DNA of 35,219 nucleotides. Origin: a virus (lineage: Duplodnaviria; Caudoviricetes). Location: positions 1-35,219 of IMG/VR virus record IMGVR_UViG_3300013005_000095; one strand, given 5' to 3'. The notes under the pieces are model-generated. The model was not told the origin of the DNA. It was given only the letters and a program-made list of their open reading frames with translations, and searched no databases. Positions 2,898-16,669 of the stretch are shown one piece after another; the stretch's first letter is position 1, and each line of letters starts with the position of its first letter. A program made the translations under genes and the position numbers.

Positions 2898-4885
2898 TGG
2901 CTCTGAAGATAAGCATCTGGAATGACGACAAGGCTCGGGCTGAAATCCTTAAACGGTGGAACAATGCCGTTAGGGATCGTTCAGTCCATGAAGCTATTTG
3001 GCGTCAGAATGAGCGCACTATTTATTCTTCTTTAGGTACTCGTAATTCTCTATCTACGAATATGACGTTAGATTTCCCGCTTACAGAAGTCTTATCTAAT
3101 ATCGACCAATCAAATGCAGACGTATCAACAAGCTATGTAATGAAGAATCTACGTTTCATTCATGCACAAATGTCTTCTAACCCGCCAATGATTGCTGTTC
3201 GTCCACAGACTTCCGATCAAGATGACCAACGTAAAGCAGATGCGGCGGATCGTATTGTTCGCTGGGCACTACGTAAATATCAACTTCAGGAAAAGTTTGA
3301 CCAAGTAAATTTGATGTCCCTAGTCTACGGGACTGGGCTTATTAAAACTATTTGGGATTCATCGAAGGGTGATATTGTAGAAGCTAATCTGGAAACAGGA
3401 GAGCTTACATTGGAAGGAGATATAGATATTACTATTCCTTCCACATGGAATGTATTTATAGATCCAGATGCCCGCAGTTGGGACGACGTTAAGTGGGTTA
3501 TTGAGCGTATTTATATTGATTACGAAGAAGCTATATCTAGGTGGCCCGAGAAACGAGATGAATTAGACCAAGCTCGTGTACAGGAAAAGACTCCAACTTC
3601 TACAGGAATGCAAACCGAGTTGCGAGACATGCATTACAATTCTGTAGAGCTATTAGAGTACTGGGAAACCGGTCTACCGACAAACGGATATCTAGGCCGT
3701 TATTGTATTACTACAGTTTCTGGAGAGATTATTGAATCCCCACGTCCAAGCCCGTTTAGATTTAGGCGTCAGGGAGCTGCATCTAAAATAGAGATGTCAG
3801 ATCTTCCAGAGGAAGTAAAACAAACTAAAATTGAAAAGCTACCAGAACAAGCAAGTCTTCCATATCACTTTATTACTGATCTAGATGTACCTAATACTTT
3901 GTGGGGCAAGTCTGCAGTTGAATATGCAATGACTTTGCAAAACAATTTAAATCGCCTTGATGCTACACGACTTGATAATATTCAAGCTCACGGCGCAGCT
4001 CGTATGATTCTGCCGGAGTCTGCAGAAATTTCAGAAGACGCACTGGGTAACAGTCCGTGGGATATTGTAAAGATTACAGGAAATCAGCCTCCATACTTTA
4101 TGTCAGCTCCACAACTACTTCCGGAGCTATCTAGCGAGCGAGTTAATTATATTCAGGGCATCAATGATGTCATGGGCGTAAATGAATCCATGTTTGGTCA
4201 GCAATCTCGTGAGCAATCCGGTGCATCCATGCAATATGCTACCAATCAAGGTAACATGATTCGTCATCGTCTGTTTAATAAATATGTAGCCTGTGTAGAA
4301 TCTGTATATAAAGCCCTACTTAATCTTGTACGTAAGCATTGGTCTATTGGCCGCACTATTCACGTACTAGGTAAGGAGCAAGCTCTGGAAGCTACGGATG
4401 TTAAGGGTATGGATATTGACGGAGGCTTTGATGTAGTAGGCGAGTATGGTACTACATTGTCTCTTGATCCAATTACTCGTCAACAACAAATCATTACACT
4501 ACAGCCTCTCTTTGAAAAAGCAGGGGTAGATAGTCGAGTACTTCTTAAGAAGCTACGACTTAATGATCTCGAAGGTATCTTTGACGCTTTCGAACTGGCT
4601 GGACATAGACAGAAAGAAATCTTCGACGAAATGATTGCAACGGGAATCTATATTGCTCCCGAAGAACAAATGGATCATGAAAATATGATTGCATGGTCTC
4701 TTCGTTATTTTATGACACAGGAATTTACAGCCTTGCCCGCAGAAACTAAGGCATTACTCAAACAGCACAATAAGGACAGGGCAGCATTAGCAGCTCAAGA
4801 AAAATCTTCTGGAGCAGCTCCTGCGGCAGAAGAAGTACCTCCCGGAGCCCCAGCACCTGCACCAATTCCCGGACAACCAGTATAA
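2897..4885 (+). CDS. portal protein
   Basis: 662 aa, follows terL; podovirus-portal-like segments (VYGTGLIKTIWD, WNVFIDPDAR, LWGKSAVE, VMGVNESMFGQ, SGASMQ) and Pro/Ala-rich C-terminal tail. Confidence 0.88.
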   Translation: MALKISIWNDDKARAEILKRWNNAVRDRSVHEAIWRQNERTIYSSLGTRNSLSTNMTLDFPLTEVLSNIDQSNADVSTSYVMKNLRFIHAQMSSNPPMIAVRPQTSDQDDQRKADAADRIVRWALRKYQLQEKFDQVNLMSLVYGTGLIKTIWDSSKGDIVEANLETGELTLEGDIDITIPSTWNVFIDPDARSWDDVKWVIERIYIDYEEAISRWPEKRDELDQARVQEKTPTSTGMQTELRDMHYNSVELLEYWETGLPTNGYLGRYCITTVSGEIIESPRPSPFRFRRQGAASKIEMSDLPEEVKQTKIEKLPEQASLPYHFITDLDVPNTLWGKSAVEYAMTLQNNLNRLDATRLDNIQAHGAARMILPESAEISEDALGNSPWDIVKITGNQPPYFMSAPQLLPELSSERVNYIQGINDVMGVNESMFGQQSREQSGASMQYATNQGNMIRHRLFNKYVACVESVYKALLNLVRKHWSIGRTIHVLGKEQALEATDVKGMDIDGGFDVVGEYGTTLSLDPITRQQQIITLQPLFEKAGVDSRVLLKKLRLNDLEGIFDAFELAGHRQKEIFDEMIATGIYIAPEEQMDHENMIAWSLRYFMTQEFTALPAETKALLKQHNKDRAALAAQEKSSGAAPAAEEVPPGAPAPAPIPGQPV

Positions 4886-5265
4886 TGATATCTCGTGATG
4901 AAATCCTAATGGGCCGAGATAAGCAAGCTCCTCTTACTGGGCCAATGGAAGTAAATCTAGAAAAGCTCCTGAAGGCTATAAATAAGTTTAGGGCCGTATG
5001 GGGTAAGCCCATGAAGGTAACTTCGGGCTACCGTCCCGCAGCCATTAACGCTACCGTTAAGGGAGCAGCTAAAAAATCCAATCATATGGAATGTTTAGCT
5101 GTTGACTTTGCAGATCGTGACGGAAAACTGGCGGAATACTGTCTTAACAATTTAAAATTATTAGAAGAATTTGGCATTTGGATAGAAGATCCTGCCCATA
5201 CAAAAGGTTGGGTGCATATGCAGGTAGTCCCTCCTAGATCCGGTAATAGGGTGTTTAAGCCTTAA
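4885..5265 (+). CDS. endolysin, peptidase M15 (Zn peptidase) family
   Basis: Motifs VTSGYR, SNH-x4-AVD (H…D Zn ligands) and GWVH; 126 aa; TAATG coupling to portal. Confidence 0.85.
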   Translation: MISRDEILMGRDKQAPLTGPMEVNLEKLLKAINKFRAVWGKPMKVTSGYRPAAINATVKGAAKKSNHMECLAVDFADRDGKLAEYCLNNLKLLEEFGIWIEDPAHTKGWVHMQVVPPRSGNRVFKP

Positions 5266-6581: not shown

Positions 6582-7940
6582 ATGAGTTTTAGTAATATTG
6601 ACATTCCAGCACTCGGTAATTTGCTCCAGATCAAATTCTCTGATGGTATCAGAAATCAGATCTCAAAAGATTTCCGTGACTGGGAAATGGTTCTTAAGGC
6701 AAAAGTATCCAACTCGGCAGCTCGTGAACTTCGCTTCATGCTGTTGACAGCGTTTGGTGTTGATGCAATCAACTATGCAAATCCGGGTACAATTGACTCT
6801 ACATTCCCATCGGCTGATCGTTCCAGCCTACAAGAGTATACAGCTAAGTTTAAAGAGATTCGTGCTACTATCGAAGTACAATACGACCTCTTCGAACGTG
6901 CTATCATGTCTCCAGAGAAGTATGGTGAGCCAATCAAAGTTGAGATGGACTCGAAGCTTTCAGCTTCCAAGCGTCGTCTCGCTGCAGACTTCCATGCTGA
7001 CGGTACTGGCGTCCTCGGTACAGTAGCTTCGTCTACTCTTACCAGCCCATGTGCAGTTACTTTGGATGCCTCTGACTCTGCTCGTGGCCATGTAGGTCTA
7101 TTCGAGTATGGCCAGAAAGTAGTGCCTAAAACTGCAGCTGGCGGAGCTTCTGCTGCTACTGCTGTTACTGGTACTTTCTCTCACTTTGTAGTTGTTCAGA
7201 AAGATCGTGACAATCAGATTCTTACTCTTCAAGCTGTCAACACTGCAGGCGCTAATACCGCTCTAAGTGCAGGTCCAGCGGCTACTGAAGTATTGTACCG
7301 TAAGGCACAAACAGATGCAGGCGACGTTCCTAACCTAAGCTCTATCTCTGACTACGGTACAGCTACACAAGTTATGGCAGGTTTGCCATCTCTAGTTGCT
7401 GCTGACGGTCGTACAGTTCATGGCATGACCATGAGCGGCGCAATCGCAAGCTCCGAGTTTGATGCAGGCGGAAACCCAATTGACGTTCGTCACATTCAAC
7501 GTGCAATGAGTCAAGTAAAAGTCAAAGTTGGTCAGGATCAGTACAGCTGGAAAATGATGGTACAAGCTCCTGAGACTCTCGACTCCTTGATCGAAAGCCG
7601 TGAAACTGATCGTCGCTTTATGTCTATGGAAGACGGCGCTCGTGGTACGAAGAAATTCGTATACCAGCACCAGAACGATTCTCTCGAGTGCTATACTTCC
7701 GAGTATTGCCAACCTAAGAGAATCTACATTCTTCCAGAATCTAAAGCTGGTCAGAAGGTTCTCGAGTTCCACGGATCCGACTTTAAGACAGTCAAGGCTC
7801 CGGGCGGCGGCGACTTCCACCTTAAGCCAAGTGCTTCTGGTTTCGTAGCAACCGTTGTAAGTTACATGCAAGCTATCGGCGTAGTTATCTGTAAGCACCC
7901 AGCTTCGGTTGCGGTTATCAGAAACTTCTCCAACAGCTAA
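6582..7940 (+). CDS. major capsid protein
   Basis: 452 aa after scaffold; codon pattern suggesting high expression (many GCT/ACT/CGT/GGT/AAC/TTC); capsid-like segments (EIRATIEVQYDLFERA, RRLAADFHADGTG, C-terminal CKHPASVAVIRN). Confidence 0.85.
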   Translation: MSFSNIDIPALGNLLQIKFSDGIRNQISKDFRDWEMVLKAKVSNSAARELRFMLLTAFGVDAINYANPGTIDSTFPSADRSSLQEYTAKFKEIRATIEVQYDLFERAIMSPEKYGEPIKVEMDSKLSASKRRLAADFHADGTGVLGTVASSTLTSPCAVTLDASDSARGHVGLFEYGQKVVPKTAAGGASAATAVTGTFSHFVVVQKDRDNQILTLQAVNTAGANTALSAGPAATEVLYRKAQTDAGDVPNLSSISDYGTATQVMAGLPSLVAADGRTVHGMTMSGAIASSEFDAGGNPIDVRHIQRAMSQVKVKVGQDQYSWKMMVQAPETLDSLIESRETDRRFMSMEDGARGTKKFVYQHQNDSLECYTSEYCQPKRIYILPESKAGQKVLEFHGSDFKTVKAPGGGDFHLKPSASGFVATVVSYMQAIGVVICKHPASVAVIRNFSNS

Positions 7941-8200
7941 TCTCCCCGCCTAGTCTTCCTATCGTCCCTGCTCCCACAGGGACAGGTGGATTCACAAGAG
8001 GGCTCCCGACACCTTGGGAGAGGCAAGTCTACGACGTAATAGCCTGAGTGCAGAGTGGTGTGACCCGGGGGGAGAGACCCCCACCAATCTAGTCACCTGA
8101 GTTATGTGGTGAGTTCGGGGCAGGCTTGCCCCACCAATTAACCTGAGGGCTAGTCACCCCTTGCTCGAAAGAGATAGATGACTTACTAATCGAAAGGAAA
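7941..8200 (+). ncRNA. candidate structured non-coding RNA / cis-element with two tandem units ending in hairpin-ACCA
   Basis: GC-rich intergenic region with no long ORF. Stems GTCCCTG/CAGGGAC (7964-7983), CTCCCGA/TTGGGAG (8003-8020), GGGGG/CCCCC (8067-8082), TCACC/GGTGA (8093-8112), GGGGCA/TGCCCC (8117-8132), AGTCA/TGACT (8152-8183) enclosing CTC-GAAA-GAG. Confidence 0.65.
8043..8147 (+). repeat. ~50-nt imperfect tandem repeat: CCTGAGT..GTGGTG..CGGGG-N8-CCCCACCAAT
   Basis: CCTGAG at 8043, 8096, 8142; GTGGTG at 8055, 8106; CGGGG at 8066, 8116; CCCCACCAAT at 8079, 8129. Confidence 0.75.
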
Positions 8201-8206
8201 TAAATT

Positions 8207-8533
8207 ATGTCAGCACCTAATCTAAGAACAGAAGCGGCAGCAGCCGGTAATTACCCAGAACAACGTTTTAACCAGCGTGAACGCAAGATGCTTCAGTCTG
8301 TAGCAGAATATGCACAGGCAGGTAAGCATCAGACTGCAGGCGGCGACGCTACGGAAGTTATTTCTGTACCCGGCGCTACGTCGGCAGACATTGCGCTTGT
8401 TACTCTGCAGACTGCAGGAGCAGTTCCACGCACGGTTCTAAGAGCCGCTGCAGGTACCGACTCTATCACAGTTACATTGAGCGGCGATCCTTCAACAGAT
8501 CACGTTCTTTGCTGGGCATTGATTAAAGGATAA
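8207..8533 (+). CDS. small virion protein, possibly head decoration
   Basis: 108 aa, Ala/Thr/Gly-rich beta domain, first gene after capsid, SD AAAGGA. Confidence 0.55.
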   Translation: MSAPNLRTEAAAAGNYPEQRFNQRERKMLQSVAEYAQAGKHQTAGGDATEVISVPGATSADIALVTLQTAGAVPRTVLRAAAGTDSITVTLSGDPSTDHVLCWALIKG

Positions 8534-8549
8534 TATAACCCACCCGATG

Positions 8550-8573
8550 GCCTGCCTCCGGTGTGAGGCAGGT
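8550..8573 (+). promoter_or_regulatory. GC-rich intergenic hairpin without U-tract
   Basis: GCCTGCCTC-cggtgt-GAGGCAGGT (9 bp); CTCC at 8581-8584 could pair with the SD GGAG at 8592-8595. Confidence 0.55.
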
Positions 8574-8601
8574 ACAGGGCCTCCCTCTCTAGGAGAACGA
8601 A

Positions 8602-16243: not shown

Positions 16244-16669
16244 ATGGCATTAGAAAAACTTGCTACAGTACTTAGGGCTCTTCAGCTATACGGGCAACAT
16301 GCACATAACAACTGTGCGGGCAAGTCTTTTATTCCAGATCACGATATGTTTGCTTCTTCTTATCAAGCCGCCGCCGATGCATACGATTCTGTAGTTGAAC
16401 GTATAATTGGTAGTACTGGAAAGCCTGTAGATACTATGGAAATTTCACTACAAGCTATTAAACTTACTGCATCTTGTAGTAGAAATCCCGGAGAATGTAA
16501 TACAGAATTCTTGCGTGGAGTTCTTAAATTAGAATTAGCTACGTGCGTACATATAGATCAGCTGTGTGAGTCTCGTTCTCTTCCCGAAGGAACCCGTCAA
16601 TTGATTGGCGATATTGCTGATAAATCCATGTCAAGACAATACAAACTTAAGCAGCGTCTTAAGGAGTAA
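16244..16669 (+). CDS. Dps/ferritin-like protein
   Basis: QHAHNNCAGKSFIPDHDMFASSYQAAADAYDSVVERIIG matches the Dps signature H-W-N-x2-G-x2-F-x3-H-x14-D-x3-ER (H,H,D,E retained; W replaced by N); 141 aa fits a four-helix bundle. Confidence 0.78.
   Translation: MALEKLATVLRALQLYGQHAHNNCAGKSFIPDHDMFASSYQAAADAYDSVVERIIGSTGKPVDTMEISLQAIKLTASCSRNPGECNTEFLRGVLKLELATCVHIDQLCESRSLPEGTRQLIGDIADKSMSRQYKLKQRLKE

Follow-up and report, generated by a model that had tools for sequence, protein, structure and literature searches.

The DNA analysed here, referred to as the window, is a stretch of 35,219 nt (a 35-kb tailed-phage fragment, 58% complete) in which PHROGs recognised terminase and portal genes, followed by a gene for a protein of 452 aa. 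PHROG, Pfam and PDB sequence searches with this gene returned no match, and the AlphaFold model of its product is of low confidence (mean pLDDT 56); because that model best matches phage capsids (top Foldseek matches, E 2e-4 to 8e-4), the gene at 6582-7940 is taken as the putative major capsid gene. Between it and a gene for 108 aa lies a gap of 266 nt, which holds the two hairpin units singled out in a preliminary description of this DNA. The features of the locus are listed below.

6582-7940, plus strand: putative major capsid protein gene (452 aa), given as context; identity through AlphaFold and Foldseek.
7964-7983, plus strand: upstream hairpin, present in the closest relatives only; stem changes compensated in L003, L004 and L134.
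8003-8020, plus strand: module 1 (type B), stem S1 (8003-8007 with 8016-8020) and its loop GACACCTT (8008-8015); pairing backed by covariation.
8021-8053, plus strand: module 1, optional L2 insert (hairpin 8021-8045) and linker, missing from minimal modules.
8054-8064, plus strand: module 1, A-G-U (8054-8056), S2 partner GGTGT (8057-8061, pairing with 8009-8013) and GAC linker.
8067-8082, plus strand: module 1, 3' hairpin with GAGAGA loop, the first minihelix of the preliminary description.
8083-8088, plus strand: module 1, tail ACCAAT, complementary to the invariant TGGT and not conserved family-wide.
8089-8113, plus strand: module 2 (type A), loop GTCACCT (8092-8098), damaged S1 and partner GGTGA (8108-8112).
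8117-8138, plus strand: module 2, 3' hairpin with GGCT loop and tail ACCAAT, the second minihelix of the preliminary description.
8146-8161, plus strand: separate hairpin with a 7-nt C-Y-R-R-Y-C-A loop, before the ribosome-binding site (8192-8198).
8207-8533, plus strand: next gene (108 aa), no family match; in many relatives the module lies behind this gene instead.

The two units are laid out as had been claimed, with CCTGAG at 8043 and 8096, GTGGTG at 8055 and 8106, ACCAAT at 8083 and 8133, and hairpins exactly 50 nt apart at 8067-8082 (5 bp, loop GAGAGA) and 8117-8132 (6 bp, loop GGCT). The string CCCCACCAA occurs exactly twice in the window, both times within the units; allowing one mismatch raises this to 8 matches where 3.8 are expected, which is only a mild enrichment for the word by itself. 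The third CCTGAG reported at 8142 exists, but as the start of the separate hairpin at 8146-8161 and not of a third unit, and its position reads AACTGAG in the relatives L013, L014 and L134. The element does not begin at 8043, where its start had been placed, but upstream at 8003, and the units are not free-standing minihelices, each being the 3' half of a module made of a pseudoknot and a hairpin. That they are not tRNAs held true, since ARAGORN called 0 genes and Rfam gave 0 matches at gathering score in the region (3 chance-level matches at E up to 10), and both a tRNA and a tmRNA were ruled out on these negatives. Searched as a pattern in IMG/VR, the consensus of the preliminary description retrieved 2 stretches, the same phage and a chance match inside a gene, which was the first sign that it did not describe the conserved unit. 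The folding energy of the feature is unremarkable (z -0.8 and -1.1), and we hold the feature to be real because of covariation and of a strict descriptor, which finds 1 match in the window and 0 in 300 mononucleotide shuffles.

Relatives of the capsid gene were fetched, and the DNA behind the gene was read in 99 distinct cases. The module consists, in this order, of hairpin S1 with a G-NN-ACC-U loop, an optional insert, A-G-U, GGU-NN-G and a second hairpin at a near-fixed distance, and the knot arises where the loop of the first hairpin pairs with GGU-NN behind A-G-U (S2). In an alignment of 24 capsid-clade members, chosen for carrying the motif and with loci found by protein homology, 240/240 cells pair and 7/10 pairs show compensatory change (5/5 in S1 and 2/5 in S2), a level that 0/500 shuffles reach and against which slid controls pair at 31-57%; three S2 pairs are invariant and by themselves uninformative on pairing. 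The G, the U and the G-U are invariant in 24/24 clade members, and the A before G-U is present in at least 90%. Among the matches listed, the second S1 pair is G-C in 108/112 modules found through their 3' half, A-C stands at the outer end of S2 in 26/112 type B modules, which makes that pair optional in type B, and the linker ranges from 5 to 54 nt, with 5-6 nt in 94/240 modules. In S1, G-U/U-G pairs (14) only modestly outnumber A-C/C-A (9); the strand assignment rests mainly on neighbouring genes and tRNAs. On this evidence the pseudoknot-plus-hairpin structure is very probably correct. Of the window's two modules, the type B one (8003-8082) is complete, and the type A one (8089-8132) is damaged by an A-G mismatch at the closing pair of S1; the strict descriptor passes module 1 and fails on module 2, for which the closest type A relatives are L094 and L106.

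Several familiar elements were considered for this site and set aside. A stop-codon readthrough signal was rejected, several capsid genes ending in double stops and the spacing keeping no frame; likeness to a group I intron, hammerhead, twister or HDV-like ribozyme, the SRP Alu domain or an anti-Shine-Dalgarno element was dropped by eye against their consensus sequences; and for a CsrA site the GGA is present in type B only. No intrinsic terminator or sigma-70 promoter was called at the module.

Other small elements accompany the module. The hairpin at 7964-7983 has the loop CTCCCA in the window and TTCCCG in L003, L004 and L134; by sequence, this loop is the complement of S1's 3' strand, so that the hairpin could be a competing anti-S1 switch. 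Hairpins of the kind found at 8146-8161, with the conserved loop, occur in L004, L013, L021, L029 and L096, and also in L049, which lacks the module; this hairpin is a possible candidate for a translational operator. A different G-C-rich stem with an internal loop lies 3' of the 108-aa gene (8540-8585), and in many relatives a similar G-C-rich hairpin and the module exchange places between the two gene gaps.

Type statistics were drawn from 240 of 361 raw matches, kept for an A or U before GUGG and for a hairpin. Among the matches listed, GACACCU goes with a GAGAG loop in 73/87 cases (type B) and GUCACCU with a GC loop in 134/145 (type A), and in 106/112 type B modules 4-5 nt separate the GAC linker from the loop. 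Knot, linker and 3' loop therefore change jointly, and the near-identical clade members L044 and L028 differ only in type. Because three separate places change together, and given the fixed spacing, the 3' hairpin loop would dock onto the knot or be read together with it. The joint change, the type B spacing and the L044-L028 pair also speak for a binding scaffold, for a conserved host or phage protein, a small signalling ligand or the module's own second copy, with the two types as two specificities. Such a scaffold is nevertheless unlikely: no constant partner gene was found among the neighbours scanned, the bases flanking the GC of the type A loop are not consistently self-complementary, and a ToxI-type G filling the helix junction would leave little room for a ligand. 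The family appears to be wider than the descriptor, as the Pseudomonas phage Itty13 (L696, 2470-2530), L605 and L650 carry a type B 3' half with a different upstream loop that can still pair.

Close relatives carry different numbers of copies, as the preliminary description had suggested, and so do even near-identical phages. L134 and L004 have a single copy; the window, L013 and L014 have two 3' halves, the latter two phages repeating the 3' half only, and L029 and L055 repeat the whole module. In unrelated phages, arrays of 3-5 modules stand behind the capsid gene, each copy with a different insert. In L351 (2390-2860), L375, L378, L417 and L422, the array consists of 3-5 type B modules and follows a capsid gene of phrog_1328. 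Insert hairpins, for example one with the loop GGCTCCATGCC, recur across phages and array positions, like swappable payloads.

The two hairpins had been interpreted as mimics of the tRNA acceptor end. A tRNA minihelix has a 7-bp acceptor stem or a 12-bp acceptor-T stack with a T loop, and the hairpins of the window resemble it in being followed by ACCA; they differ from it in that their stems are too short (5 and 6 bp in the window, mostly 4-5 bp in type B, 4-7 bp overall), the T loop is absent and the 5' side, including the upstream GGTG, is taken up by the covarying pseudoknot. The ACCA is enriched within the capsid clade and is not conserved family-wide: among the listed modules, which were found regardless of their tail, ACCA directly follows the stem in 4/112 and CCA occurs within six bases of it in 13/112, whereas in the capsid clade ACCA directly follows the stem in 5/24 and (N)CCA is present in 12/24 by script and 16/24 by eye. 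This clade enrichment is the best evidence for acceptor mimicry, to which the ACCA ends of both window hairpins and the location of some modules inside tRNA clusters may be added. However, CCA is complementary to the invariant UGG and to the second GUG in the linker of the capsid clade, so that pairing or descent is as good an explanation as mimicry; family-wide, pairing of the tail with the A-G-U region is not above permutation (p 0.08). With the knot and not the tail as the conserved part, acceptor-end mimics are a very improbable explanation.

The strict descriptor recovered at least 268 distinct modules from all loci collected, in phages and prophage-like regions of several phyla. Pattern scans of IMG/VR returned at least 120 stretches each (estimated totals about 410, 500 and 520, chance matches included) and a GTDB scan 122 of about 200, many of them chance matches inside genes; the convincing GTDB cases belong, by record titles of bins that may be contaminated, to Gamma- and Alphaproteobacteria, Verrucomicrobiota, Actinomycetota, Patescibacteria and one Nanoarchaeota bin. 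The latter, L489, has a textbook type A module at 2500-2545, and the module would reach archaeal viruses if the bin is right. When only the 3' half was used as the pattern, an upstream hairpin lay within 90 nt in 112/133 distinct matches listed, against 2% in shuffles; all of these 112 hairpins carry the loop GACACCU, and the other 21/133 have none or a variant. The module is carried by hundreds of phage sequences that are unrelated to one another. Within the family of the capsid gene, for which 85 distinct loci had at least 750 nt downstream, a looser pattern found the motif in 28/39 relatives of at least 50% identity (the window's own contig included) and in 2/46 below; the module follows either the capsid gene directly or the small gene after it, and in L004 an inserted 199-aa ORF. 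Cultured phages and E. coli gave short partial matches only, and the pattern found the full module in 0/5 records examined. In lake RNA libraries the phage and its relatives are present as contigs. Metatranscriptome contigs of the window strain, in which DNA may be present, span both the capsid gene and its neighbour downstream (depth 2-4) with a gap at 7949-8132 in four runs, and those of relatives run through the module, as contigs that carry no ends, strand or level and in which DNA may likewise be present.

The genomic neighbourhood of the module is consistent with a role in cis or with the slot of a small RNA gene. Upstream genes include 7 major head proteins and one SSB among 37 scanned (of 64), and downstream genes include primases, a helicase, a methylase and ParB among 41 scanned (of 69). 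Among the matches listed, 28/114 modules from outside the clade start 0-20 nt after a same-strand stop codon, against 19/684 control positions, a contrast that is inflated because the controls lie mostly inside genes. Any tRNA in the available flanking DNA accompanies 21/213 modules (among the matches listed); in 12 modules a tRNA follows within 150 nt, always on the same strand, 10 of them at 3-15 nt and none flush. The nearest upstream tRNAs end 14-104 nt before the loop, the downstream ones lie at varied distances, and modules fill slots inside tRNA clusters. One phage contig (L275, 1960-2310) has an RNase P class A RNA (145 bits) in its tRNA cluster, with the module between two tRNAs.

The position behind stop codons, the head and SSB genes upstream and the downstream neighbours named above, and the 12/12 tRNAs on the same strand all favour a cis-acting nuclease roadblock or processing mark, which would protect against 3'-5' decay (PNPase, RNase R) or 5'-3' decay (RNase J) and set the levels of capsid, SSB, tRNA or downstream mRNA. 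Near-invariance across phyla would also suit such an intrinsic physical job, and exonuclease-resistant RNAs built as hairpin, spacer and hairpin exist. For example, the coremin xrRNA-C, as far as described in the available part of PMC10520033, combines a small hairpin, a spacer and a second hairpin in intergenic or 3' untranslated regions. On the other hand, its first loop follows YGAD or YGNNAD, a consensus not found in the module, whose G-NN-ACC-U loop forms covarying Watson-Crick pairs, and it belongs to eukaryotic RNA viruses, whereas the module is found in DNA phages. A roadblock would, moreover, have no need of arrays of up to five copies with different inserts, of sites between tRNAs, of swaps or of frequent loss. 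We consider this explanation possible, and nearly as likely as the decoy discussed below. The insert at 8021-8045 resembles the printed coremin sequence (a short GUC/GAC stem, then GUAAUA), with a 3-nt loop that is not YGAD.

Searched with Rfam, 40 module loci (gathering score) and 2 minimal modules (E up to 10) returned only neighbouring tRNAs and the one RNase P RNA, and no ribozyme, pistol included. A new self-cleaving ribozyme, which would cut polycistronic phage RNA into units, is favoured by what may be a pistol-like order of the helices and by the invariant bases, the compact fold and the tolerated inserts. Sites next to capsid genes and tRNAs are likewise typical of small phage ribozymes in the accessible text of PMC10879173, and the theta ribozymes treated there, minimal HDV-like RNAs, share with the module that they are small pseudoknotted phage RNAs next to tRNA genes. 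Unlike them, the module is a single H-type knot plus a hairpin with no nested double pseudoknot, is not flush with tRNA 3' ends and lies in most copies away from tRNAs; theta-like processing was ruled out, no module end being flush with a tRNA (gaps 14-104 nt). In addition, the ToxI-type tertiary contacts described below would account for the invariant bases, and two unrelated 3' loop classes would be odd for one active site. Self-cleavage is therefore distinctly unlikely, more so than the binding scaffold.

The closest structural parallel to the module is ToxI (RF02519), the RNA antitoxin of type III toxIN systems, whose toxin is ToxN. In the ToxI knot, as given in the part of PMC8860590 available, loop 1 turns at G5, U12, paired with U22, also binds G21, and A19/A20 contact two S1 G-C pairs, while ToxN binds the single-stranded A-rich tails and A6, U7, U8, C27 and U28. 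These tails contain the site that ToxN cleaves, and ToxI stands upstream of a terminator and a toxN gene. The module is likewise a small H-type pseudoknot of two short stems, its G opens loop 1, its closing U faces the U of A-G-U, and S1 has the G-C pairs; judged on sequence, the conserved G, U and A-G-U match the bases that build the ToxI pseudoknot, and a U-U-G triple and A-minor contacts as in ToxI may form. ToxI repeats are regular tandems of 31-46 nt, and repeats of the same build include one whose corresponding loop has taken up a hairpin (PMC3401426, available part), a tolerance in loop 2 that recalls the module's optional insert. The module differs in a longer S2 (4-5 Watson-Crick pairs) and a shorter L1 (one or two unpaired bases), in having a 3' hairpin with a conserved loop where ToxI has an A-rich tail, in being mostly single and, in arrays, having inserts of different length in place of regular 31-46-nt repeats, and in a nearly invariant sequence with no toxN gene beside it. 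The shared bases may also be just what any tiny stable pseudoknot needs. The accessible portions of two TenpI papers (PMC12283969, PMC13682666) hold no closer match.

For comparison, toxN loci were collected from the class of a Faecalibacterium genome, in which 16/201 genomes were positive for PF13958 (24 loci); 16 loci were examined and 8 partial or broken matches left out. A tandem repeat stands beside toxN in 11/16 of the loci examined, and the A-G-U descriptor fits this repeat in 4/11 (L705, L710, L712, L719), L701 fits the A-A-U form, as do, by eye, L715 and L717, and 4/11 repeats fit neither. Because controls also matched (22/640 shuffled regions and 3/16 downstream 800-nt regions), the descriptor is loose, yet its match to toxN repeats is well above chance. 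It fits 97/118 short phage modules among the matches listed, partly by construction, and, by eye, the B. thuringiensis and E. rectale repeats in the available supplement of PMC3401426. PF13958 was found in 0/1 own record, 0/5 complete phage records, 0/5 host genomes carrying the module and 0/301 genomes of the Pseudomonas entomophila class, with the positive control recovered; AAAT or AAAA stands on both flanks in 1/213 modules among the matches listed; and in 5 records the Rfam ToxI model had no match at the module, its best hit (E 0.017) lying antisense within the capsid gene. The module is thus not a member of ToxI, having no toxN, no A-rich tails, no Rfam ToxI match and no regular repeats. 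PADLOC found one HicA-like protein and two weak CARF matches among 67 downstream proteins and none among 46 upstream. In the sole case that resembles an RNA-plus-toxin locus (L232, 2500-2890), a type A module and a long hairpin directly precede the gene of a HicA-like RNase (E 6e-19), next to which no HicB is obvious.

We favour a product that acts in trans, since the module turns up in different gene gaps, has often been lost, takes up slots within tRNA clusters, occurs in varying copy number and surrounds inserts that differ. For a ToxI-type core the simplest job would be that of a decoy for a host RNA-binding defence nuclease, as for the pseudo-ToxI of Pectobacterium phage PhiTE. According to the available part of PMC3475682, this RNA is also phage-borne and intergenic, has no toxin gene and varies in copy number among close relatives, but it occurs in a single phage and nearly copies a single host antitoxin. 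By comparison, the module occurs in unrelated phages and in two types, carries inserts and has no known cognate host antitoxin. A stable decoy RNA against host defence ribonucleases is our best guess, and a tentative one; the preliminary description had proposed decoy RNAs at capsid-level abundance, an idea that we keep in this general form and not in its tRNA-end form. The module would probably be trimmed from the abundant capsid transcript as a stable small RNA, and the released RNA would bind a ToxN-like or other host RNA-binding defence ribonuclease. Counted in its favour are the distribution among capsid relatives (28/39 against 2/46) and copy-number shifts like those of PhiTE pseudo-ToxI. 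Its target is the weakest step: the bases that ToxN contacts (A-rich tails and loop bases) appear to be missing in the module, and its near-invariance sits badly with cognate specificity. ToxN-ToxI pairs are cognate-specific (PMC3475682, available part), the module hardly varies and ToxN was not found in hosts, so classical ToxN is a doubtful target. Also against the decoy, the descriptor missed 7/11 toxN-linked repeats and matched 3/16 downstream controls, and the stop-proximal starts (28/114 among the matches listed) fit a role in cis.

As the preliminary description had proposed, the locus behind the putative major capsid gene thus holds a real, structured RNA that appears to be undescribed. 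The module has no match in Rfam 15, and topic searches and full-text searches for motif strings found no description of it in the literature; the strings were also not found in the supplements of PMC8040213 (8 files) and PMC8632094 (1 file), whose gapped alignments or figures may still contain the motif. A search for further cases of RNA counter-defence returned reviews and a protein mimic. PhiTE is, to our knowledge, the only phage in which an RNA is known to counter a toxin-antitoxin system; with a ToxI-like module in hundreds of phage contigs, such counter-defence would be common. It is conceivable, though rather doubtful, that phages of many phyla share a mobile counter-defence RNA of ToxI fold, with a self-protecting knot, capsid-level amounts, two specificity classes, arrays and swappable payloads; such an RNA would serve as a general sponge for antiviral ribonucleases and could be the stock that gave rise to type III antitoxins. 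Should the decoy idea fail, the module is still a phage RNA of 45 nt that is very widespread, covaries strongly and has no entry in Rfam, and for which ToxI offers a solved structural template.

Extra ORFs were also seen behind the capsid gene. In L004 the 199-aa ORF between capsid gene and module (4416-5015) has no Pfam match, and its start looks like a GIY-YIG homing endonuclease by its motif. L064, L108, L132 and L060 have an extra endonuclease-looking ORF directly after the capsid stop, and together with L004 these ORFs suggest an insertion hot spot. Elsewhere in the window, among the structural genes, a 141-aa gene (16244-16669) matches the DNA-binding family phrog_3636 (E 2e-7) and appears Dps-like by eye.
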